Shown here: positions 1,591-62,081 of the stretch, piece by piece
Position numbering within the stretch: position 1 is the stretch's first letter
Layout: every line of letters begins with the position of its first letter
Source of the DNA: Heptranchias perlo
Lineage: Eukaryota
DNA: 64,000 nucleotides
Assembly (NCBI RefSeq): GCF_035084215.1
Contig: NC_090328.1
Span: forward strand, 45,198,001 to 45,262,000
Reading direction: 5' to 3'
Position numbers and translations under genes: made by a program
The notes under the pieces: generated by a model
Told to the model about the DNA's origin: nothing
Databases searched by the model: none
What the model saw: the letters and a program-made list of their open reading frames with translations, nothing else

Positions 1591-1869
1591 GCTTGCACGT
1601 GAAATGCGTGAGCAGGTTATACTATTTTTTTTTGGGGGGGGGAGTGAAATTGATCGATTTTAAAAACAACGAACTTAATGGAAAATACAAAGATCTCAAA
1701 TTACTATTGGCACCTTAAATTTAATTGTAGTTAAAAAGTGATCCCGCGTTCTATTCCAATTATGGTATGTGTGTGTTTTTGTTACCACCGTGTAAAGTAG
1801 TCGAGGCGATAGAATAGTTGTTGGAAATTTAGCGCGAGGGGACTGGTTTAAATCTGCGCGCGAGGACCG

Positions 1870-1999
1870 GGTCAGGTGCGGACATTAACGGTAGTTGGAG
1901 CGAGCTCTCTGTGCCGCCACTCCGGTTGTTGACCTACAGAGTAATTAATAATAATCAGGTGTTGTCGCCAGTGGCAGCCGTGGCTACTTTACTGTTCGG
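1870..1999 (+). other. SLF1: candidate SLF1 non-coding exon 1 (5' UTR)
   Basis: Donor CGG|GTGAGA at 2000 at the island edge (alternative GTAACT at 2015). The next exon begins exactly at the ATG, so a non-coding exon 1 is required. TSS approximate. Confidence 0.5.
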
Positions 2000-3190
2000 G
2001 TGAGAAGAATTCGGGTAACTGACGGTACGAACATGAGGATGGCTTGTCCCTGCCCGCTATATGTGTGCTCATTGTAAAGGCAAAGGTAATGTTGTTCAGA
2101 GGCTTTTAGACCTTTACATACAATTCGCTTATAGTTTGTCTTTTTTTGTAGCCAGTAAAGTTCCCCCATGATCATGGAGGCACAAGCCTCTCCTCCGTTG
2201 TCCAGCTGAGTAGGACTGCTCTCACCTGATTCCACTCTTACCTATCGAATCGTAGCCAGAGAATCTCCTGCAATGGCTTCTCTTTCTGCCCATGCACCAT
2301 TACGTCTGGAGTCCCACAGGATCTAAGGATCTAGCCTTGGGGCCCCTTCTATTTCTCAGTGACATCTTCCAAAGATGTGTCAGGATCCACATGTATGTTG
2401 ATGATACCCGACTCTCTCATCCCACCACCGCCTCTGTGTGGTCAGCCTGCTCGTCTGACATCCAATCCTGCACGAGCCGCAGTTTGCTCCAGTTAAGCAG
2501 CAAGAAGATCGAAGTCGTTGTCTTCGGCCCCCGCCACAAACTTTGTTCCCTTGCCACCAATTCCACCGCTCTCCCCTGGCCACTGTCGGGCTGAACCAAA
2601 CTGTTTGCAACCTTTGCTTTCTAATTGAGCTGGATTTGTGCTTACAGCCCCATATCCTCTCTATCACAAAGACTGCCTACTTCCATCTGTGTAATATCTA
2701 CTGTCTCCACCACTGCCTCAGCCCTTCTGCTGCTGAAATCCTCATCAGTGCTATTGTTACCTCCAGACTCAATATTGCAATGCTCTCCTGGCTGGCCTAC
2801 TGTCTTCTACCCTCTATAAACTCTGCTGTCTGTATCCTAACTCGTACCAAGACCCATTCACCCATTACCCCTCTGCTTGCTGGCACACATTGACTCCCAG
2901 TCCACCAATGCCTTGAATTTAAAATTCTGATCCTTGTGTTCAAATCCCTCCATGGCTTTGCCCCTCCCTAACTCTGTAACCTCCTCCAGCTCTTAAATCC
3001 TACTCTGCGTTCCTCCAACCCTGGCCTCTTGTGCATCCCCCACTTCCTTTGCCCCACCATTGGCAGCTGTACCTTTAGCTGTCTCGGCCCCAAGGTCTAG
3101 AATTCCATCCCGATATCTCTGCCTCCCCTCCTTTTAAGAAGCACTTTAAAACCTACCTCTTTGACAAAGCTTTTGGTCACCTGTCCTATT

Positions 3191-4777
3191 GGGGCAAAAA
3201 TTGCTCGGAGCTGCGAACCAACAGTGCTCGCCACTTCGGGCACTTCCTCAAATAAGAAGTGGCGACTAGCCCAGCGTTAGTTGAAAACATAAAATTACAA
3301 AGAGATATTGATAGATTAGGTGAATGGGCAAAACTGTGGCAAATGGAATTCAATGTAGACAAATGTGAGGTCATCCACTTTGGATCAAAAAAGGATAGAA
3401 CAGGGTACTTTCTAAATGGTAAAAAGTTTAAAAACTGGATGTCCAAAGGGACATAGGGGTACAGGTACATACATCATTGAAGTGTCATGAACAGGTGCAG
3501 AAAATAATCAATAAGGCTAATGGAATGCTGGCCTTTATATCTAGAGTACAAGGGGGCAGAAGTTATGCTGCAGCTATACAAAACCCTGGTTAGACCGCAC
3601 CTGGAGTACTGTGAGCAGTTCTGGGCACCGCACCTTTGGAAGGACATATTGGCCTTGGAGGGAGTTCAGCGTAGATTTACTGGAATGATACCCGGACTTC
3701 AAGGGTTAAGATATGAGGAGAGAGTACACAAATTGGGGTTGTATTCTCTAGAGTTTCGAAGGTTAAGGGGTGATCTGATCGAAGTTTATAAGATATTAAG
3801 GGGAACGGATAGGGTGGATAGAGAGAAACTATTTCCGCTGGTTGGGGATTCTAGGAGTAGGGGGGCACAGTCTAAAAATTAGAGCCAGACCTTTCAGGAG
3901 TGAGATTAGAAAACATTTCTACACGGAAAGGTTATAGAAGTTTGGAACTCTCTTCCGCAAACGGCAATTAATACTAGCTCAAATACTAAATTTAAATGTG
4001 AGATAGATAGCTTTTTGGCAGCCAAAGATATTAAGGGATATGGGCCAAAGGCCGGTATATGGGGCTAGATCACAGATCAGCCATGATCTTATCAAATGGC
4101 GGAGCAGGCACGAGGGGCAGAATGGCCTACTCCTGTTCCTATGTTCCTAAGTGATAGGCTCACTCTCCCCTTGACCAATCAGATTGCAGCATTTTTGACA
4201 AGCTGAGAAACTGTTTCTGCAGGCTTCGAATGTATAAACCAGGAAGTGAAAGGTGCAACATTAAAATCATTGTAAAAGCAGTAATAGACTGGGGGGAGAA
4301 AAAGAGAGGGTAAGAAATAATTGAATTAAATAAGAGACACAAGGGAAAAGTTTTTTTTCTTAAAAAAATTAAATTATTTTTTGAAGATTTCTTTTAATGA
4401 CCAAAAGCTATTAAAATAAGGAGTAATGCGACTCCACGTTTTCAAGAGTTAATTTTTAGTTGTTTGGCAGTTATTAAGACTTACTGCGCTATTGAAACTT
4501 AGTTTAGACCTGGTATTTTTAAGCCTACCTGTTTTGTGGTGTAATTAGTTACTTTCCAGATGAGCAAGTTGGCACTTTTTTAATGATTTCACTGATTGCA
4601 GCCAGCACTATACTTTGTATTCACAGCTGTCATATCGTCGGCGAACCAGTAGGAGCCAGTTCCAGATTCCCACGTTTTACTGTGCATGTGCGAACGCCGG
4701 AACTTGCTACTCCATTTCGCCACTGACAACGGGGAGTGCTGTTGAGCTCACCGTTCTTTCCAAGCAGTTTCTGCCCT
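3191..4777. mobile_element. non-autonomous TIR DNA element (MITE), interrupted by a CR1
   Basis: Imperfect 19-bp TIRs GGGGCAAAAATTGCTCGGA / TCCAAGCAGTTTCTGCCCT (15/19). Internal blocks are collinear with the element at 54587-55340. Confidence 0.7.
3278..4150 (+). mobile_element. CR1 LINE, 5'-truncated young copy
   Basis: [30 protein letters not shown] and LYKTLVRPHLEYCEQFWAP; tail GGCCTACTCCTGTTCCTATGTTCCTA. Near-identical to 29929-30810 (-). Confidence 0.92.
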
Positions 4778-5529: not shown

Positions 5530-8500
5530 TGTTTATTATTCATTCATGGGATGTAGGCGTCGCTGACAAGGCCTGTATTTATTACCCATCCCTAATTGCC
5601 CTTGAGATGATGGTGGTGAGCCGCCTTCTTGAACTGCTGCAGTCTGTGTGGTGAAGGTTCTCCCACAGTGCTGTTAGGTAGGGAGTTCCAGAATTTTGAC
5701 CCAGCGACGATGAAGGAACGGCGATTATATTTCCAAGTCGAGATGGTGTGTGACTTTGAGGGGAATGTGCAGGTGGCGTTGTTCCCATGTGCCTGCTGCC
5801 CTTGTCCTTCTAGGTGGTAGAGGTCGCGGGTTTGGGAGGTGCTGTCGAAGAAGCCTTGGCGAGTTGCTGCAGTGCATCCTGTGGATGGTACACACTGCAG
5901 CCACGGTGCGTCATGGTGAAGGGAGTGAACGTTTAGGGTGGTGGATGGGGTGCCAATCAAGTGGGCTGCTTTGTCCTGGATGGTGTCGAGCTTCTTGCAG
6001 TTGCACTCATCCAGGCAAGCGGAGAGTATTCCATCCTGACTTGTGCCTTGTAAATGGTGGAAAGGCTTTGGGGAGTCAGGAGGTGAGTCACTCGCCACAG
6101 AATACCCAACCTCTGACCTGCTCTTGGAGCCACAGTATTTATGTGGCTGGTCCAGTTAAGTTTGTGGTCAATGGTGACCCCCAGGATATTGATGGTGGGG
6201 GATTCGGCGATGGTAATGCCATTGAATGTCATGGGGAGGTGGTTAGACTCTCTTGGAGATGGTCATTGCCTGGCATGAATGTTACTTGCCACTTATGAGC
6301 CCAAGCCTGGATGTTGTCCAGGTCTTGCTGCATGTGGGTACGGACTGCTTCGTTATCTGAGGGGTTGCGAATGGAACTGAATGCTGTGCAATCATCAGCG
6401 AATATCCCCATTTCTGACCTTATGATGGAGGGAAGGTCATTGATGAAGCAACTGAAGATGGTTGGGCCGAGGACACTGCCCTGAGGAACTCCTGCAGCAA
6501 TGTCCTGGGGCTGAGATGATTGGCCTCCAACAACCACTACCATCTTCCTTTGTGCTTGGTATGACTCCAGCCACTGGAGAGATTTCCCATTGACTTCAAT
6601 TTTAGTAGGACATCAATTTTAGTTGGGCTTCTTGGTGCCACACTCTGTCAAATGCTACCTTGATGTCAAGGGCAGTCATTCTCACCTCACCTCTGGAATT
6701 CAGCTCTTCTGTCCATGTTTGGACCAAGGCTGTAATGAGGTCTGGAGCCGAGTGGTCCTGGCGGAACCCAAACTGAGCATCGGTGAGCAGGTTATTGGTG
6801 AGTAAGTGCCGCTTGATAGCACTGTCGACGACCCCTTCCATCACTTTGTTGATGATTGAGAGCAGACTGGTGGAGTGGTAATTGGCCTGATTGGATTTGT
6901 CCTGCTTTTTGTGGACAGGACATACCTGGGCAATTTTCCACATTGTCGGGTAGATGCCAATGTTGTAGCTGTACTGGAACAGTTTGGCCTGAGGCGCGGT
7001 TAGTTCTGGAGCACAAATCTTCAGCACTACAGCCAGGATGTTGTCGGGGCCCATAGCCTTTGCTGTATCCAGTACACTCGGCTGTTTCTTGATATCACGT
7101 GGAGTGAATCGAATTGGCTGAAGAATGACTTCTGTGATGGTGGGGATATCGGGAGGAGGCCGAGATGGATCATCTACTCGGCACTTCTGGCTGAAGATGG
7201 GTGCAAATGCTTCAGCCTTGTCTTTTGCACTCATGTGCTGGACTCCGCCATCATTGAGGATGGGGATGTTTGCAGAGCCTCCTCCTCCCGTTAGTTATTT
7301 AATTGTCCACCACCATTCACGACTGGATGTGGCAGGACTGCAGAACTTTGATCTGATCCAGTGGTTGTGAAATCGCTTAGCTCTGTCTGTAGCATGTTGC
7401 TTCCGCTGTTTAGCATGCATGTCGTCCTGAGTTATAGCTTCACCAGATTGGCACCTAATTTTTAGTGTACGCCTGGTGCTGCTCTTCTACACTCCTCGAA
7501 CCAGGATTGATCCCCTGGCTTGTTGGTAATGGTAGAGTGAGGAATATGCCGGGCCATGAGGTTACAGATTGTGCTGGAATACAATTCTGCTGCTGGCCCA
7601 CAGCGCCTCATGGATGCCCAGTTTTGAGCTGCTAGATCTGTTCTGAATCTATCCCATTCAGCACAGTGATAGTGCCACTCAACACATGGGATGGTGTCCT
7701 CAGTGTGAAGACTGGACTTCTTCTCCATGAGGACTGTGCGGTGGTCGCTTCTACCAATACTGTCATAGACAGATGCATCTGCGACAGGTAGATTGGTGAG
7801 GACGAGGTCAAGTAGGTTTTTCCCTCGTGTTGGTTCGCTCACGACCTGCCGCAGGCCCAATCTGGCAGCTATGTCCTTCAGGGCTCGGTCAGTAGTGGTG
7901 CTACCGAGCCACTCTTGGTGGTGGACATTGAAGTCCCCCATCCAGAGTACATTCTGTGCCCTTGCTACCCTCAGTGCTTCCTCCAAGTGGCACTCGACAT
8001 GGAGGAGGACAGATTCACCAGCTGAGGGAGGACGGTAGGTGGTAATCAGCAGGAGGTTTCCTTGCCCATGTTTTGCCTGATGACATGAGATTTCATGGGG
8101 TCCGGAGTTGATGTTGAGGACTCCCAGGGCCACTCCCTCCTGACTGTATATCACTGTACCGTCACCTCTGGTGGGTCCGTCCTGTGGGACAGGACATACC
8201 CAGGGATGGTGATGGAAGAGTCTAGGACGTTGGCTGAAAGGTATGATTCTGTGAGTATGGCTATGTCAGGCTGTTGCTTGACTAGTCTGTGGGATAGCTC
8301 TCCCAATTTTGGCACAAGTCCCCAGATGTTAGTGAGGTGGGCTTTGCAGGGTCGACTGGGCTTGGTCGTGTCCGGTGCCTCGTGATCCGATGCCGGGTGG
8401 TCCGTCCGGTTTTATTCTTATTGTGACTTTCTGTAGCGGGATTGTAGAATTTAGTGGCTTGCTTAGGTCATTTCAGAATCAACCACATTGCTGTGGGCCT

Positions 8501-8758
8501 GGAGTCACATACAGGCTAGACCGGGTAAGGATGACAAGTTTCCTTCCCTAAAGGACATTAGTGAACCAGATGGGTTTTTACGACAATCTGGTAGTTTCAT
8601 GGTCACTATTACTGATACTATTTTTTTATTCCAGATTTTATTTAATTGAATTTAAATTCCCCAGTTGCCGTGGTGGGATTTGAACTCATGATTCCGGATT
8701 ATTAGTCCAGGCCTTTGGATTACTAGTCCAGTAACATAGCCACTATGCTACCGTACCC
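5530..8758 (-). mobile_element. full-length single-ORF CR1-group (Zenon-like) LINE with tRNA-derived 5' head; ORF disrupted
   Basis: APE domain (LTNIWGL..PDIAILTESYL, MGDFNVHH, NLLDLVLTN, SDH) and RT ([26 protein letters not shown]). The C-terminus ends at 5592, followed by a short hairpin 3' UTR and an A-rich tail. A box 8750-8740, B box 8687-8676. No ORF1. Confidence 0.9.
8660..8758 (-). promoter_or_regulatory. tRNA-derived internal Pol III promoter (A and B boxes) heading the LINE
   Basis: Sense strand reads GGGTACGG-TAGCATAGTGG-...-GAGTTCAAATCC-CACC, with a duplicated anticodon-arm-like CTGGACTA(G/A)TAATCC between the boxes. Confidence 0.8.
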
Positions 8759-13385: not shown

Positions 13386-15150
13386 TTTTTTTTTATTCGT
13401 TCATGGGATGTGGGCGTCGCTGGCAAGGCCAGCATTTATTGCCCATCCCTAATTGCCCTTGAGAAGGTGGTGGTGAACCGCAGCAGTCCGTGTGGTGAAG
13501 GTTTTCCCACAGTGCTGTTAGGAAGAGAGTTCCAGGATTTTGACCCAGCGACGATGAAGGAACGGCGATATATTTCCAAATCGGGATGGTGTGTGACTTG
13601 GAGGGGAATGTGCAGGTGGTGTTGTTCCCATGTGCCTGCTGCTCTTGTCCTTCTAGGTGGTAGAGGTCGCGGATTTGGGAGGTGCTGTCGAAGAAGCCTT
13701 GGCGAATTGCTGCAGTGCATCTTGTAGATGGTACACACTGCAGCCGCGGTGCATCTTGTAGATGGTACACACTGCAGCCGCGGTGCATCTTGTAGATGGT
13801 ACACATTGCAGCCGCGGTGCATCTTGTAGATGGTACACACTGCAGCCGCGGTGCATCTTGTAGATGGTACACACTGCAGCCGCGGTGTGCGGTGGTGAAG
13901 GGAGTGAATGTTTAGGGTGGTGGATGGGATGCCAATCAAGCGGGCTGCTTTGTCCTGGATGGTGTCGAGCTTCTCGAGTGTTGTTGCAGTTGCACTCATC
14001 CAGGCAAGTGGAGAGTATTCCATCACACTCCTGACATGTGCCTTGTAGATGGTGGAAAGGCTTTGGGGAGTCACGAGATGAGTCACTCACCGCAGAATAC
14101 CCAGCCTCTGACCTGCTCTTGTAGCCACAGTATCTATATGGCTGGTCCAGTTAAGTTTGTGGTCAATGGTGACCCCCAGGATGTTGATGGTGGGGAATTT
14201 GGCGATGGTAATGCCGTTGAATGTCAAGGGGAGGGGGTTAGACTCTCTCTTGTTGGAGATGGTCATTGCCTGGCACTTGTCTGACGCGAATGTTACTTGC
14301 CACTTATGAGCCCAAGCCTGGATGTTGTCCAGGTCTTGCTGCACGCGGGCTCGGACTGCTTCATTATCTGAGGGGTTGTGAATGGAACTGAACACTGTGC
14401 AATCATCAGCGAACATCCCCATTTCTGACCTTATGATGGAGAGGTCATTGATGAAGCAGCTGAAGATGGTTGGGCCTAGGACACTGCCTTGAGGAATTCC
14501 TGCAGCAATGTCCTGGGGCTGAGATGATTGGCCTTCAACAACCACAACCATCTTCCTTTGTGCTAGGTATGACTCCAGCCACTGGAGAGTTTTCCCCCTG
14601 ATTCCCATTGACTTCAATTTTACTAGGGCTGCTTGGTGCCACACTCGGTCAAATGCTGCCTTGATGTCAAGGGCAGGAACTCTCACCTCACCTCTGGAAT
14701 TCAGCTCTTTTGTCCATGTTTGGACCAAGGCTGTAATGAGGTCTGGAGCCGAGTGGTCCTGGCGGAACCCAAACTGAGCATCGGTGAGCAGGTCATTGGT
14801 GAGTAAGTGCCGCTTGATAGCACTGTCGACGACACCTTCCATTACTTTGCTGATGATTGAGAGTAGACTGATGGGGTGGTAATTGGGCGGATTAGATTTG
14901 TCCTGCTTTTTGTGGACAGGACATACCTGGGCAATTTTCCACACTGTCGGGTAGATGCCAGTGTTGTAGCTGTACTGGAACATCTTAGCTAGGGGCGCAG
15001 CTAGTTCTGGCGCACAAGCCTTCAGCACTATAGCCGGGATGTTGTCGGGGCCGATAGCCTTTGCTGTATCCAGTGCACTCAGCCGTTTCTTGATATCGCG
15101 TGGAGCGAATCGAATTGGCTGAAGACTGGCTTCTGTGATGGTGGGGATAT
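13386..15150 (-). mobile_element. Zenon-like CR1-group LINE, 5'-truncated, RT largely intact
   Basis: Same family as 5530-8758. The RT reads open from 15150 to 14087 ([15 protein letters not shown]); poly-A tail at 13386-13394. Confidence 0.92.
13715..13884. repeat. 34-bp minisatellite, 5 tandem copies, inside the LINE
   Basis: Unit GTGCATCTTGTAGATGGTACACACTGCAGCCGCG; four identical copies and one with a single substitution; no spacers. Confidence 0.95.
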
Positions 15151-15433
15151 CTATCTTAGCCTTGAATATATTCAATGACTCAGCATCCACAGCCCTCTGG
15201 GGTAGAGAATTCCAAAGATTTATAACCCTCTGCGTGAAGAAATTCCTCCTCATCTCAGTCTTAAATGGCTGACCCCTTATCCTGCTACTTTGCCCCCTAG
15301 TTCTAGGCTCTCCAGCCATGGGAAACAACCTCTCAGCATCTACCCTGTCAAACCCCCTCATAATCTTATGTTTCAATTCGATCACCTCTCATTCTTCTAA
15401 ACTCCAGAGAGTATAGGCCCATTCTACTCAACC
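15151..15433 (-). mobile_element. CR1 ORF2 C-terminal fragment fused 5' of the Zenon-like copy
   Basis: KIMRGFDRVDAERLFP..RRNFFTQRVINLWNSLP; near-identical to 36000-36272. Confidence 0.88.
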
Positions 15434-28169: not shown

Positions 28170-28232
28170 TTTTTAATTCATTCTCAGGATGTGGGCGTCA
28201 CTGGCAAGGCCAGCATTTATTAATGCCAATCT
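28170..28232 (-). mobile_element. 3'-tail-only fragment of the Zenon-like LINE family
   Basis: GGATGTGGGCGTCACTGGCAAGGCCAGCATTTATT matches 13406-13440. Confidence 0.75.
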
Positions 28233-29669: not shown

Positions 29670-32600
29670 TGATGGTTTTTTTGGGTGAAAATAAATTCAC
29701 ATCTAATCTGTGGTAAAGTAAAAGATGCAGTTTATTAAAACAGAGCTCTGGGAGAAGGGTCTCTGACCCCACGGTCTGTGCGAGCACCTTCTCCCCGATC
29801 AACAAAATTCACAAGCTTATATACAGTACAAGACTGGAGCACACCGATAGCCGTTACTATATTACTTATTCCTTAGCCAATCTGGCTCCGTGGCAACATT
29901 CAAAAACAACCTAATTATAACTTTACATAGTAACCGGAGTAGGCCATTTAGCCCCTCGTGCCTGCTCCGCCATTTGATAAGATCATGGCTGATCTGTGAT
30001 CTAACTCCATATACCTGCCTTTGGCCCATATCCCTTAATACCTTTGTTTGCCAAAAAGCTATCTATCTCAGATTTAAATTTAGCAATTGAGCTAGTATCA
30101 ATTGCCGTTTACGGAAGAGTTCCAAACTTCTACAACCCTTTGTGTGTAGAAATGTTTTCTAATCTCGCTCCTGAAAGGTCTGGCTCTATAATTTTTAGAC
30201 TGTGCCCCCCCCCCACCGATTCCTAAAATCCCCAACCAGCAGAAATAGTTTCTCTCTATCCACCCTATCTGTTCCCCTTAATATCTTATAAACTTCGATC
30301 AGATCACCCCTTAACCTTCGAAACTCTAGAGAATACAACCCCAATTTCTGTAATCTCTCCTCGTAACTTAACCGTTGAAGTCCGGGTATCATTCTAGTAA
30401 ACCTACGCTGCACTCCCTCCAAGGCTAATATGTCCTTCCGAAGGTGCGGTGCCCAGAAATGCTCACAGTACTCCAGGTGCGGTCTAACCAGGGTTTTGTA
30501 TAGCTGCAGCATAACTTCTGCCCCCTTGTACTCCAGTCCTCTAGATATAAAGGCCAACATTCCATTTGCCGCCTTGATTATTTTCTGCACCTGTTCATGA
30601 CACTTCAATGATCTATGTACCTGTACCCCTATGTCCCTTTGGACATCCACTGTTTTTAACTTTTTACCATTTAGAAAGTACCCTGTTCTATCCTTTTTTG
30701 ATCCAAAGTGGATGACCTCACATTTGTCTACATTGAATTCCATTTGCCACAGTTTTGCCTATTCACCTAATCTATCAATATCTCTTTGTAATTTTATGTT
30801 TTCATCTACACTGCTTACAATGCCACCAATCTTTGTGTCATCGGCAAACTTAGATATGAGACTTTCTATGCCTTCATCTGAGTCGTTAATAAATATTGTG
30901 AATAATTGAGGCCCCAAGACAGATCCCTGCGAGACTCCACTAGTCACATCCTGCCAATGTGAGTCCCTACTCTCTGTCGCCTTTCGCTCAGCCAACTTCC
31001 TAACCAAGTCCGTACTTTTCGCACGATTCCATGGGCTTCTATCTTAGCTAACAGTCTCTTATGTGGGACCTTATCAAATGCCTTCTGGAAGTCCATATAA
31101 ATAACATCCATTGACATTCCCCTGTCCACTACTTTAGTCACCTCTTCAAAAAATTCAATCAGGTTTGTCAGGCACGACCTACCTTTCACAAATCCATCTG
31201 GCTCTCTCTGATTAACTGAAAATTCTCGGTGTTCAGTCACCCTATCCTTAATTATAGACTCCAGCATTTTCCACACAACAGATGTTAGGCTAACTGGTCT
31301 ATAATTCCCCGGTTTCCCTCTCTCTCCTTTCTTAAAAAGCAGAGTGATATGTGCAATTTTCCAATCTAGAGGGACAGTTCCTGAATCTGGAGAACTTTGA
31401 AAGATTATAGTTAGGGCATCTGCAATGTGTTCACCTACTTCCTTTAAAACACTGGGATGGAAACCATCTGGTCCTGGGGATTTGTCACTCTTTAGTGCTA
31501 TTATTTTCTTCATTACTGTTGCTTTACTTATGTTAATTTTATCAAGTCCCTGTCCCCGATTCAATATAAGTTTTCTTGGGATTTCCGGCATGCTATCCTC
31601 TTTTTCGACTGTAAATACTGACGCAAAGTAATTGTTCAACATGTCCGCCATTTCCCCATTGTCAATGACAATATGCCCACTTTCAGTTTTTAAGGGGCCA
31701 ACACTGATCCTGACCACCCTCTTTTTTCCTAATATAACTATAAAAGTTCTTCGTATTGGTTTTGATATCCCTTGCGGGTTTCTTTTCATATTCTCTTTTT
31801 GTAGCCCTTACTATCTGTTTTGTGACCCTTTGTTGATCTTTGTATCTTTCCCATTCGCCAGGATCTGTGCCATTTTTTGCCTTTTTGTATGCCCTTTCCT
31901 TATGTCTTATACTGTCCCTTACCTCTTCAGTCGTCCATGGCTGTTTTTTTTGGCAAGTAGAGTTCTTGCCCCTTGGGTATAAACCGATTCTGTATCACAT
32001 TAAATGTTTCTTTAAACATTTCCCACTGATCATCTGTCGTTTTACCCATTAACAGATTTTCCCAGTTTACTGTGGACAGTCTCTGTCTCATCCCATTGAA
32101 GTCGGCCTTGCCCAAGTCTAGAATCTTAGCAACTGATTCACTTTTTTCCCTTTCAAACACTACATTGAACTCGATCATGTTATCACTATTGGATAGATGT
32201 TCATGCACAGTTAAGCCGTTAACTAAATCTGGTTCATTACTCATTACTAAATCTAGTATGGCTTGCCCCCTTGTTGCCTCTAGGACATACTGCTGCAGAA
32301 AACTATCCCGGACACACTCAAGAAATTCACTACCTTTCTGAGTTGCTAGTCTGCTTTCCCCAATCTATGTGAAGGTTAAAGTCCCCCATTAAGACCACTA
32401 TGCCTTTCTTCCACGCTTGTCCAATCTCTGCATTTATACAATCTAGCACTTCAGAGCTGCTGCCAGGGGTCCTATACACAACTCCCACTATAGTCTTAGA
32501 TCCTTTCCTATTTCTCAATTCAACCCATAAGGTCTCTGTTGGCTGCTTACCTCTCGTTATATCCCCCTTTATCATTGAAGTGATTTCATCTCTAATCATT

Positions 32601-34020
32601 AAGGCTACTCCTCCCCCTCTTCCATTTTTCCTATCTCTCCTGTAGACCTTATAACCTGGTATGTTTAGTTCCCAATCCTGACCATCCTGTAGCCAAGTCT
32701 CAGTAATAGCTATCATGTCATACCCTCCCATTTGAATTTGAACCTGTAGTTCATTTAATTTATTCCTTATACTCCATGCATTTGTATATAGAACTCTTAG
32801 TTGGGCCACACACCCTAGCCTGACCTTCAGCTTTGGTGGGTTAATCGCCTTACGCCTTCTAGTTTTTACTTTATCTGTCGTGCCTAAAGTACACTTTCTT
32901 TCCGCTGCTCTACGCTTTTCCCTTTCACTTGTTCTTGAACAACTGTTTGTACTATTTGTATTGTAAATTTCCCCTGGGTCTTCCCCTCTCTTTCCTGCTC
33001 TCAACTTTATTCCCTTCTGACTCCTCGCTCGGGTTCCAATCCCCCTGCCACTCTAGTTTAAATCTTCCCCAACAGCACTAACAAACACCCCCGCGAGGAC
33101 GTTAGTCCTGGTCCTGCTAGGGTGTAACCCGTCCCGCTTGTACAGGTCCCACCTTCCCCAGAACCGGTCCCAATGTCCCAGGAATCTAAATCCCTCCCTC
33201 CTACACCATCCCTGCAGCCACGCATTCATCCTGTCTATTCTCCTGTTCCTATACTCACTAGCACGTGGCACTGGTAGTAATCCTGAGATCACTACCTTTG
33301 AAGTCCTGCTTTTTAATTTATCTCCTAACTCCTTAAATTCACCTTGCAGGTCCTCATCCCTTTTTTCACATAAGTCGTTGGTACCGATATGGACCACGAC
33401 TACTGGCTGTTCACCCTCCCCCCTCCAGAATGCCCTGCAGCCGCTCCGTGACATCCTTGACCCTAGCACCAGGGAGGCAACATACCATCCTGGAGTCATG
33501 TTTGCGGCCGCAGAAACGCCTATCTGTTCCCCTTACAATTGAATCCCCTATCACTATAGCCCTGCCACTCTTCTTCCTCTCCTCCTGTGCAGCAGAGCCA
33601 CCCGTGGTGCCCCGAACCTGGCTCTTGCTGCTTTCCCCTGATAAGCCATCTCCCCCAACAGTATCCAAAGCAGAATATCTGTTTGAGAGGGAGATGGCCC
33701 CAGGGGACTCCTGCTCTACCTGCCTAGTCCTTTTACTCTGCCTGGCGGTCACCCATTTCCTTTCACCCATTTCCTTTACATTGTTAGCTAAGCCTCTTCT
33801 TTTAGTTCTGTCTTTTATCTAAGTTTGTCCAGTTATCTGGACAGTAGGGTCCATTTCTGCTGTATCGTGGCTTTGGCCGATCTGAGTCAGTGACTCGTGA
33901 TTGGACATGGCTCAAAGGTTAATCAAATGTACCCTGCATACACCCGTGTGACAGTTGCTACTTCGTAACCCGATTGTGCTGCAAATTTTAACAGTTATTG
34001 CAGCTTCTCATATCTCCACA
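29670..34020 (-). mobile_element. probable ERV-type solo LTR (~0.5 kb; segments ~29670-29928 and 33782-34020) split by a CR1
   Basis: Minus strand starts TGTGGAGA at 34020, then CCAAT-type box, TATATAAG (29823-29816), R-region hairpin and AATAAA (29736-29731). It ends in CA at 29709 or 29670. No clean TSD found. Confidence 0.6.
29929..33773 (-). mobile_element. near-full-length CR1 LINE: ORF1 (SGNH esterase) plus ORF2 (APE-RT), frameshifted
   Basis: ORF1 motifs IVIGDSIVR, HIGTND, DGLHP. ORF2 motifs YTNAWSIRNK, AITETWL, MGDFN, YMDFQKAFDKVPH, FADD. 8-bp TSD CTTTACAT at 29921-29928 and 33774-33781. Confidence 0.95.
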
Positions 34021-39552: not shown

Positions 39553-40860
39553 TTAGTTGCCCTGAGAAGATGATAATCGGCCTTCTCCTTATGCTGATGC
39601 ATCCATGGTGTTAAGTAGCAATGACAATGAAGGAATGGCAATATATGTCCAAGTCAGGATGCTGTGTGACTAGGAGGGGAACTTGGAGTTGATGGTGTTG
39701 CCATGTTCTTTCTTGACCCTCTTGATGGTAGGTGCTGGGAGGAGTTTTCGAAATAAGCTTGGTGAGTTGCTACAGTGAATCTGGTAGATAGTACATACTG
39801 CAGCCGCAGTGCACAAGTGGTGGAAGGAATGGATATTATGTTTAGTGGCAAAGGTGCTGATCAAGCTGCCTCCTTTACCCAGAATGCTGTCAAGCTTTGA
39901 GTGATACAGCTGTATCCATCCAAGTGAATGCTGAGAATTCCTTTATATTTGAGTCTTGCAAATGATGGAGAGTCTTTGAAAGCTCAAGAGGTGAGCCTGT
40001 CTTTGCAAAATACCATGCTCTGCCCTGCCCTGCTCTTCACGTTCTCCATAACATCACCCATCTCTGTCCATGGATCAGCCCATGTGCTGCTGAAACCCTC
40101 ATCTAGGCTTTATCTCCACTTATCTATTCCAGTGCTCCAATAGCTAAATTCCCATCTTCCACCCTCATCCAAAACCCTGCTGCCCATATCCCAACTGGCG
40201 TCAAGTCCTACACATCCATCACCCCTGTGCTCGTTGATCCACATCAGCTCGCAGTCCACCAGTTACTCAATTTTTAAATTCTCATCCTCGTGTTCAAATC
40301 CCTTCATGGTCTCGCCCCTACCTATCTCTGTGACCTCCTCCAGCCCTACAACCCTCCAAGAACTTTGTTCCTCTAACTCTAACGTCTTGTGCATCCCTCA
40401 CTTCCTTCGCCCCACCACTGGCGGCTGTGCTTTCAGCCGCCTAGGCCTAAGCTCTGGAATTCCCTCAAACATCTCCACCTCTCTCTCCTTAAAACCTACC
40501 TCTTTGACCAAGCTTTTAGTCACCCATCCTAATATCTTTCTTTAGCTCTGTGTCAGTTTTTGTCTGATTATGCTAAAAGGTGCTATATAAATGCAAGTTG
40601 TTGATATTATGGCTGGTCTAGTTGCGTTTCTGGTCATTGGTCTCCCATTCCCCGGGATGTTGATGATGGAGGAGTCAGTGATGCATTTGAAGGTTGGGAG
40701 AGGTGATTGGATTTTATCTTGGAGATGGTCATTGCGTGCCACTTACATGGCGCAAAAGCTACCTGCCACTTGTCCACCCCTGCCTGGATGTAGTGCTGGT
40801 GTTGCTGTGAACTGACATAGGCTGCTTCATTATCGGAGGAGTTGTGATTGGAGCTTAACA
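39553..40860 (-). mobile_element. old Zenon-like LINE fragment, split by an L2 (40030-40603)
   Basis: Degenerate homology to 5590-6380 on both sides (AAAVCTIY.IHCSNSP; DNEAA; DKWQVAFAPCK). Confidence 0.7.
40030..40603 (+). mobile_element. L2 3' fragment
   Basis: GGCAFSRLG..; tail GGTGCTATATAAATGCAAGTTGTTG. Confidence 0.85.
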
Positions 40861-40904
40861 CTAGAATAGTCAGTTGAGTATAAAGAGCGGCTAATTATTT
40901 GTAA

Positions 40905-46701: not shown

Positions 46702-46796
46702 TCACCACCACCTTCTCAAGGGCAATTAGGGGTGGGCAATAAATGCTAGCCTTGCCAGCGACGCCCACGTCCCATGAACTAATTTTTTTTTAAAAA
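46702..46796 (+). mobile_element. 3'-tail-only fragment of the Zenon-like LINE family
   Basis: TCACCACCACCTTCTCAAGGGCAATTAGGG.TGGGCAATAAATGC...CGACGCCCAC.TCCCATGAA. Confidence 0.85.
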
Positions 46797-60909: not shown

Positions 60910-62081
60910 ACAGTAAAGGCGAGGCTGAAGCGTTTGCAACCATCTTCAGCCAGAAGTGCCGAGTAGATGATCCATCTCTGCCTCCTCCCAATATCCCCAC
61001 CATCACAGAAGCCAGTCTTCAGCCAATTCGATTCACTCCACGTGATGTCAAGAAACTGCTGAGTGCACTGGATACAGCAAAGGCTATGGGCCCCGACAAC
61101 ATCCCGGCTGTAGTGCTGAAGACTTGTGCTCCAGAACTAGCTGCGCCTCTAGCCAAGCTGTTCCAGTACAGCTACAACACTGACATCTACCCGACAATGT
61201 GGAAAATTGCCCAGGCATATCCTGTCCACAAAAAGCAGGACAAATCCAATCCGGCCAATTACCACCCCATCAGTCTACTCTCAATCATCAGCAAAGTGAT
61301 GGAAGGTGTCATCGACAGTGCTATCAAGCGGCACTTACTCACCAATAACCTGCTCACCGATGCTCAGTTTGGGTTCCGCCAGGACCACTCTGCTCCAGAC
61401 CTCATTACAGCCTTGGTCCAAACATGGACAAAAAAGCTGAATTCCAGAGGTGAGGTGAGAGTGACTGCCCTTGACATCAAGGCAGCATTTGACCGAGTGT
61501 GGCACCAAGGAGCCCTAGTAAAATTGAAGACAATGGGAATCAGGGGGGTGGGGGAAGCTCTCCAATGGCTGAAGTCTTACCTAGCACAAAGGAAGATGGT
61601 AGTGGTTGTTGGAGGCCAATCATCTCAGCCCCAGGACATTGCTGCAGGAGTTCCTCAGGGCAGTGTCCTAGGCCCAACCATCTTCAGCTGCTTCATCAAT
61701 GTCCTTCCCTCCATCATAAGGTCAGAAATGGGGATGTTCGCTGATGATTGCAGTGTTCAGTTCCATTCGCAACCCCTCAGATAATGAAGCAGTCCGTGCC
61801 CGCATGCAGCAAGACCTGGACAACATCCAGGCTTGGACTGATAAGTGGCAAGTAACATTCGCGCCAGGCAATGACTATCTCCAACAAGAGAGTGTCTAAC
61901 CACCTCCCCTTGACATTTAACAGCATTACCATCGCCGAATTCCCCACCATCAACAAGCTGGGGGTCACCATTGACCAGCCATATAATACTGTGGCTCCAA
62001 GAGCAGGTCAGATTAGGGTTGGGCAATAAATGCTGCCCTCTCCATCAATGCCCACATCCCATGAACGAATTTTTTAAAAAA
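60910..62081 (+). mobile_element. Zenon-like LINE, 5'-truncated, with ~0.5-kb internal deletion
   Basis: 293-aa open RT segment ([28 protein letters not shown]); jumps at 62012/62013 from GAGCAGGTCAGA to the 3' tail. Confidence 0.92.

Follow-up and report, generated by a model that had tools for sequence, protein, structure and literature searches.

An apparently autonomous LINE family with a tRNA-derived head in Heptranchias perlo, a candidate for transcription by RNA polymerase III

The LINE copies of the window

The window is a 64,000-nt stretch of Heptranchias perlo contig NC_090328.1 (positions 45,198,001 to 45,262,000, forward strand), which holds several copies and fragments of one common LINE family (Table 1). 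Family nucleotide +1 corresponds to window position 8758, where the full-length copy begins with GGGTACGG; the A box and B box that the first-pass annotation had placed behind this start are confirmed. The copy differs from the family majority by 5.3% mismatches and many indels, and no frame in it stays free of stops for more than 267 codons; the earlier description of the element as protein-coding holds for the family majority, whose frame runs for 972 codons from nt 320 behind a 319-nt leader, and not for the window copy, which is broken. The part of the leader downstream of the head is taken by us to resemble the Deu domain of SacSINE1. The 3′ UTR of a sister copy (L035) gave a fold with a z of -2.3.

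Table 1. Copies of the tRNA-headed LINE family and their parts, in window positions
Feature	Positions	Strand	Remarks
Full-length decayed tRNA-headed LINE copy	5530..8758	-	3.3-kb single-ORF family
tRNA-derived head	8663..8758	-	anticodon-arm-like segment duplicated
A box TAGCATAGTGG	8740..8750	-	reads 8750-8740
B box GAGTTCAAATCC	8676..8687	-	reads 8687-8676
SINE-body-like 5′ UTR	8448..8662	-	also in short forms; several short upstream ORFs
Broken APE endonuclease and reverse transcriptase ORF	5592..8443	-	
3′ UTR	5530..5591	-	AATAAA at 5583-5578, predicted stem-loop, TGAA-type end, short A-rich tail
Young copy, 5′-truncated	13386..15151	-	family nt 1655-3301, internal tandem duplication
Young copy, 5′-truncated	60915..62070	+	internal deletion, family nt 1580-2702 and 3234-3292
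Old-subfamily fragment, 5′ piece	40608..40862	-	73% to young majority
Old-subfamily fragment, 3′ piece	39623..40031	-	70% to young majority
Family 3′ tail fragment	46702..46783	+	isolated
Family 3′ tail fragment	28170..28221	-	isolated

The sense (minus) strand of the full-length copy carries no run of four or more T (T4) and 15 runs of four or more A; the two young partial copies also lack sense T4, and the ORF1-bearing CR1 at 29929-33773 is rich in them (eight counted), all as previously read. What had been taken for a single old decayed copy at 39553-40860 with two T4 proved to be two LINE pieces with one T4 each, split by a different abundant repeat (40030-40604), an insertion into the old fragment with three further T4 of its own. 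Three L2-like pieces at other loci contain 4, 3 and 0 T4 in 0.7-0.8 kb. In the minus-strand young copy, a unit of ~66 nt from the 3′ part of the ORF is tandemly duplicated at 13436-13911.

A fixed head joined to a protein under purifying selection

Copies were picked by ORF sequence alone to avoid bias toward the head. Among 58 such copies, 29 reach nt +1..+10, 29 are shorter and none has a different start; 18/29 of the APE-picked copies reach +1..+7 and 11/29 of the RT-picked copies reach +1..+10, while the shorter copies end at scattered points with no other common 5′ end. A search of the 3.25-Gb genome with the head-ORF junction, a biased pick with scoring limited to the best 40 of 8704 candidates, found the junction spanned in 39/39 other top matches; 38 of these have their start in +1..+11, and 27 are full-length copies. 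The 49 upstream flanks are unrelated except for one duplicate pair and one 26-bp match, and target-site duplications of at least 8 nt are scarce (3/39). The same junction is present in older subfamilies (76-85% identical); head, ORF and tail are all covered by contigs of four organisms, the junction is bridged in contigs of two of the further organisms, and the closest named protein match is from a shark. The first-pass annotation had allowed that the head might be a private SINE insertion on one copy; this is rejected because the junction occurs in unbiased picks and in old subfamilies, and the head is a family trait.

The base at +1 is G in 55/67 copies, and could be a fixed cap-derived base; at -1, G is found in 8/55 against a background of 18%, without an excess such as a cap might leave. 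The A box is intact in 46/54 copies, the B box in 44/54, and both together in 37/54. Between the old and young majority sequences, nt 1-82, which contain both boxes, differ at 1/82 positions, compared with 12/78 for nt 83-160 (Fisher p=0.001); the ORF start shows 12/114 changes, and the APE region is conserved too (13/570). Of eight copies scanned with ARAGORN, one (sister copy L060) has its head called as tRNA-Thr(AGT) and the other seven are not called tRNA; the Rfam tRNA match in the window head is weak (16 bits, below cut-off), and the fold of the head is no better than that of shuffles (z -0.45). What the copies show is a constrained head with a fixed place at +1, joined to a protein under purifying selection.

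Searches of relatives yielded little resembling the head. The family 5′ UTR has no credible match in 160 relative loci (without the closest relatives, P0001-P0006); Rfam on eight relative loci returned one tRNA only, antisense in the ORF start (L110:1966-2039, minus strand, 49.8 bits), and relaxed ARAGORN on relatives returned noise. A B-box regular expression, which tests the B box alone, matches 5/78 of the relatives’ upstream regions. A scan of viral contigs was empty.

Natural copies L035 and L040 have an APE endonuclease and a reverse transcriptase in one ORF (Pfam PF03372, PF14529 and PF00078), for which the best PDB match is L1 ORF2p; there is no ORF1, and the longest upstream ORF has 71 codons. 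Dispersal is of LINE type, with scattered copies, 5′ truncation and a fixed 3′ end. A quick tree, built without named Zenon or L2 RTs, groups the family with unnamed invertebrate-type and sponge elements in a clade of 33 rows that is rich in invertebrates (SH-aLRT 98) and separate from the genome’s ORF1-bearing CR1; a moth protein scores 243 bits against the family ORF and 108 bits against the genome’s CR1. The family is a single-ORF LINE, CR1-group-like. Non-CpG variants common to at least 4/65 copies comprise 64 synonymous and 55 non-synonymous changes, against 442 and 1241 for singletons, and the diagnostic changes of the youngest clade relative to older copies are 15 synonymous and 5 non-synonymous. 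These counts indicate that the ORF is under purifying selection along the source lineages and that the element is autonomous; some young copies are nearly intact, at 1.8-2% divergence with frames up to 909 codons.

Several observations concern other LINEs. In the relatives P0248 and P0004 (~40% identity) the APE domain is preceded by a basic leader, whose ATQ..NLA or MATK motifs are spaced much as in the leader of the present family, a marginal likeness; homology of the N-terminal leader to that of P0248 (P=0.03 for 1 of 8) is not established. A very young LINE with RT and zf-RVT domains and an intact 908-codon frame, presumably of the Tx1 clade, occurs at L326-L344 (G000 C9 at about 1.4-3.5 Mb, and elsewhere); most of its copies are 98.5-100% identical and many are clustered on one contig, which suggests a target preference or a repeated array. 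Eukaryotic LINE ORFs were also found in many prokaryotic genome bins (L345-L424), where they are probably host contamination.

The translation start of the family ORF is unusual. The leader contains eight AUGs, every one in a short upstream ORF, and the first AUG of the frame itself is codon 248, well inside the APE domain, with none before that domain. The AUG at nt 293 is in frame, but is rejected as a start as it is followed by TAG at codon 3 (40/79) and TAA at codon 9 (55/79); this TAA is present in 23/24 youngest-clade copies, and in the older subfamily the nt 293 triplet is GTG. GAG and CAG variants of the TAG in this frame are attributed to a general CTAG mutation hotspot. A -1 frameshift from the AUG at nt 276 is also rejected, as no slippery site common to all subfamilies was seen, judged by eye. 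As no AUG in the family is usable, a non-AUG start is required with either polymerase, and translation of the family ORF must be non-canonical. Re-initiation and IRES routes are discussed for LINE ORF2 in the cited part of PMC3894237.

The CTAG motif is hypermutable at family nt 299 (window about 8465) and at other sites, with T changed in 15.7% of copy-sites compared with 2.5% for CT[CGT] in this LINE. In CR1 copies L241-L260 the A of CTAG is changed in 12.4%; the hypermutability may be a genome-wide mutational signature.

Depletion of T runs and the choice of polymerase

The minimal Pol III terminators TTTT and TVTTT are known from HeLa data (PMC8466645, in the section cited), and the family majority contains neither. 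The first-pass annotation had proposed that selection purged terminators and had relied on the missing T4; the majority sequence does lack T4, but zero T4 is common in shuffles, being reached by 9.4% of dinucleotide shuffles of the window copy, and has a p of 0.10 under synonymous shuffling and of about 0.1 when the protein is kept and third positions are redrawn, so that it was set aside as too weak for proof. Shorter runs are more telling: TTT occurs 5 times against 12.1 expected under synonymous shuffling (p=0.003) and 16.4 under the redraw (p<0.001), and T4-or-TVTTT occurs 0 times against 4.9 under the redraw (p=0.002); about seven run statistics were taken under five nulls, and the TTT result still holds when roughly corrected for this, the rest being marginal. 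Runs of at least three A, C or G are not depleted in the family majority. Two controls from the same genome are not depleted under the redraw: the CR1 family (20 copies) has TTT 39 vs 39 and terminators 15 vs 17.5, with a T4 count that is itself slightly low (8 vs 12.5, p 0.04-0.10), and a composition-matched Tx1-type LINE (T content 0.206) has TTT 23 vs 17.7 and terminators 6 vs 7.2.

A further comparison is given by 127 related ORFs, which are the loci with frames of at least 500 codons among the 160 relative loci and are neither independent nor, for the most part, as T-poor; their TTT ratio is 0.99 at the median and never below 0.57, compared with 0.31 for the family, and T4 is present in 127/127. 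The three low-T ones are partly TTT-poor (ratios 0.57-0.74). Only one headless element, L106, both falls in the family’s clade on the tree and has its leader complete, and it carries 20 T4. Within the family the 3′ half is less depleted (TT 48 vs 50, TTT 3 vs 7.1). The old subfamily (88% identity in the 3′-most 1.4 kb) contains two TTT at different sites against 7.5 expected and no T4, while its one TVTTT leaves terminators at 1 vs 2.6, which is not significantly low in a noisy majority sequence; its A3 runs are likewise low under synonymous shuffling. Among changes to T, none of the 39 shared ones creates TTT, compared with 74/827 rare ones (p=0.03); for terminators there is no deficit (1/39 shared, 22/615 singletons). 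The 37 T4 in 260 kb of copies lie at scattered sites with 1-3 copies each, and the 27 full-length junction matches have no T4 in 18 cases and one in nine. The earlier proposal of terminator purging is retained in part: the wider terminator statistic, the controls and the conservation of the head support selection for compatibility with Pol III.

At the 3′ end, AATAAA lies about 40 nt before the A tail, and the first T4 beyond the element is found at a median of 166 nt (27 full-length loci, two of them without T4 in the flank examined). A T4-T9 run is present at the tail in 20/104 3′ ends, where the tail has passed from T-A9 to a near-symmetric T5A5 (e.g. L044, L058, L317 and two window tails), with few intermediates (five with T2-3). 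The tail run was rejected as a selected terminator as it has no age trend (p=0.77), is near-symmetric, and is matched by the same change at internal T|A borders; it is probably a DNA-level mutation hotspot.

Transcription by Pol III appears to be the best single account of the exact +1 start, the constraint on the head and the depletion of T runs; that the family is an autonomous LINE transcribed in this way from its tRNA-derived head is given an even chance. Pol III would start from the head and produce a 3.3-kb RNA acting both as template and as APE-RT message with a non-AUG start. Selection against terminators would let the polymerase traverse the whole 3.3 kb, with a T run in the tail or flank ending the transcript. 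The RNA would lack a cap, and ribosomes would reach its ORF through an IRES-like route or by re-initiating behind a short upstream ORF; the APE-RT protein would then bind the 3′ stem-loop and carry out target-primed reverse transcription. Such 3′-end binding and target-primed reverse transcription are established for LINEs; uncapped Pol III RNA is translated poorly.

The strongest competitor, considered clearly less probable, is that an internal Pol II promoter formed by the SINE-derived 5′ UTR uses the same +1 in an otherwise ordinary LINE, and that the low T runs stem from composition or other U-tract pressures. LINEs are by default Pol II products, and Pol III limits SINEs to 100-700 bp (PMC10886601, in the passages cited); zero T4 is unremarkable alone, low-T relatives are TT-poor as well, AATAAA precedes an A tail, and a protein under selection must be translated. 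However, a Pol II promoter leaves unexplained the constraint on nt 1-82 and a TTT ratio below those of the 127 relatives and both same-genome controls, and eight upstream AUGs with none usable in frame fit cap-scanning poorly. The translation problem would be eased if the roles were split, with Pol III RNA being reverse transcribed in the manner of a very long SINE and the protein coming from separate capped Pol II read-through RNAs of the same few source loci; this retains all the promoter and T-run evidence, avoids translation of uncapped RNA and suits the existence of internally deleted non-coding forms, but purifying selection in the source lineages points to cis-linkage and the missing AUG troubles a capped RNA too, making it an unlikely arrangement. 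If it is counted together with the scheme above, Pol III transcription in some form becomes somewhat better than an even bet on present sequence evidence. Slightly less likely again than split roles is that the head is a tRNA-like processing signal, at which an RNase P-type cut of host Pol II read-through gives the exact +1; unrelated flanks, the lack of an extra G and head conservation are accounted for, L060 still scores as a tRNA, and self-cleaving ribozymes have such a role in R2, RTE and Ingi (PMC5786205, in part), but this offers no reason for T-run depletion and sits poorly with a head that folds no better than shuffles and goes uncalled in most copies scanned.

Short forms and relation to known retroelements

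Short SINE-like forms of 395-465 bp join the first 315-340 nt of the family to its 3′ tail; this head-to-tail shape was seen at 27/30 loci in a search biased to it, and the joint is found in 4/4 organisms examined. Junctions vary from copy to copy and many retain the first ORF bases, which indicates that the short forms arose by repeated internal deletion of the headed LINE; splicing is rejected as a source, the junctions being heterogeneous and not GT-AG. Neither this origin nor the lack of an AUG start was part of the first-pass annotation. The short forms are assumed here to resemble SacSINE1.

The closest published counterparts are Deu-SINEs and lepidopteran LINEs. SacSINE1 and LmeSINE1, from cartilaginous fish and coelacanth, have a tRNA head, conserved body and LINE-type tail like the family (PMC5499810, PMC3747384), and reported Deu-SINE lengths of up to 463 bp match the short forms. 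Deu-SINEs are reported to be non-coding and to have only the tail in common with a partner LINE (L2-2_CM or CR1-4_DR-like; PMC5499810, PMC3747384); unlike them, the present family has the complete head and body at the 5′ end of a coding LINE, and its short forms have many junctions. A sequence-motif literature search for a published Deu domain gave nothing relevant. Lepidopteran CR1-Zenon and Persaeus share the single APE-RT ORF, the A tail and internally deleted non-autonomous derivatives; Persaeus carries the Zenon 5′ UTR, but is reported, in the part cited, without tRNA homology or a Pol III promoter (PMC6740152). CR1-Zenon-like LINEs are mentioned for the whale shark, with no description of structure in the portion cited (10.1101/443036).

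Other elements unite some of these traits. The tRNA-SINEs (SINE2) share the 5′ tRNA head with A and B boxes and the lack of an internal Pol III terminator, but are short and non-coding, as are only the deleted forms here. Bov-tA, SINE2-1_ACar and CoeSINE4 combine a tRNA head with LINE 5′ and 3′ parts, but are non-coding, and their RTE or Vingi partners are treated as headless Pol II elements in the passages cited (PMC5786205, PMC4494074); the first-pass annotation had cited SINE-like heads on autonomous RTE, Ingi and Vingi elements, whereas these passages show tRNA heads on non-coding bipartite derivatives. One of the two papers argues the converse of the case made here, ruling out Pol III where internal oligo-T is present (PMC4494074). 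The T+ SINEs B2, Dip and Ves have AATAAA before an A tail and a tail T run (PMC8466645, PMC10572872, in part), as some ends here do; they are short and non-coding, and the tail T run is absent from the family majority. The TRIMs Cassandra, Helenus and Ajax are non-SINE retroelements with small-RNA Pol III promoters, but are non-autonomous LTR elements of up to 1.3 kb that encode no protein (PMC10886601, in the passages cited). The literature search turned up no account of a tRNA-headed autonomous LINE, and subscription papers, Repbase and supplements outside that search may hold one; the architecture is real, and within the literature searched it is undescribed.

In the textbook split, LINEs are coding and made by Pol II, and SINEs are short, non-coding and made by Pol III. 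If the present reading is true, Pol III makes a 3.3-kb message and such RNA is translatable, and a long-lived and successful family of both kinds breaks the split. It is tentatively considered, as a whole reading that is possible but rather doubtful, that shark Deu-SINEs are deletion products of such a LINE; if so, a long-unexplained conserved SINE domain would gain a function. The family offers a direct test of the function of the conserved SINE body domain, and such a test is feasible because young, nearly intact copies exist.
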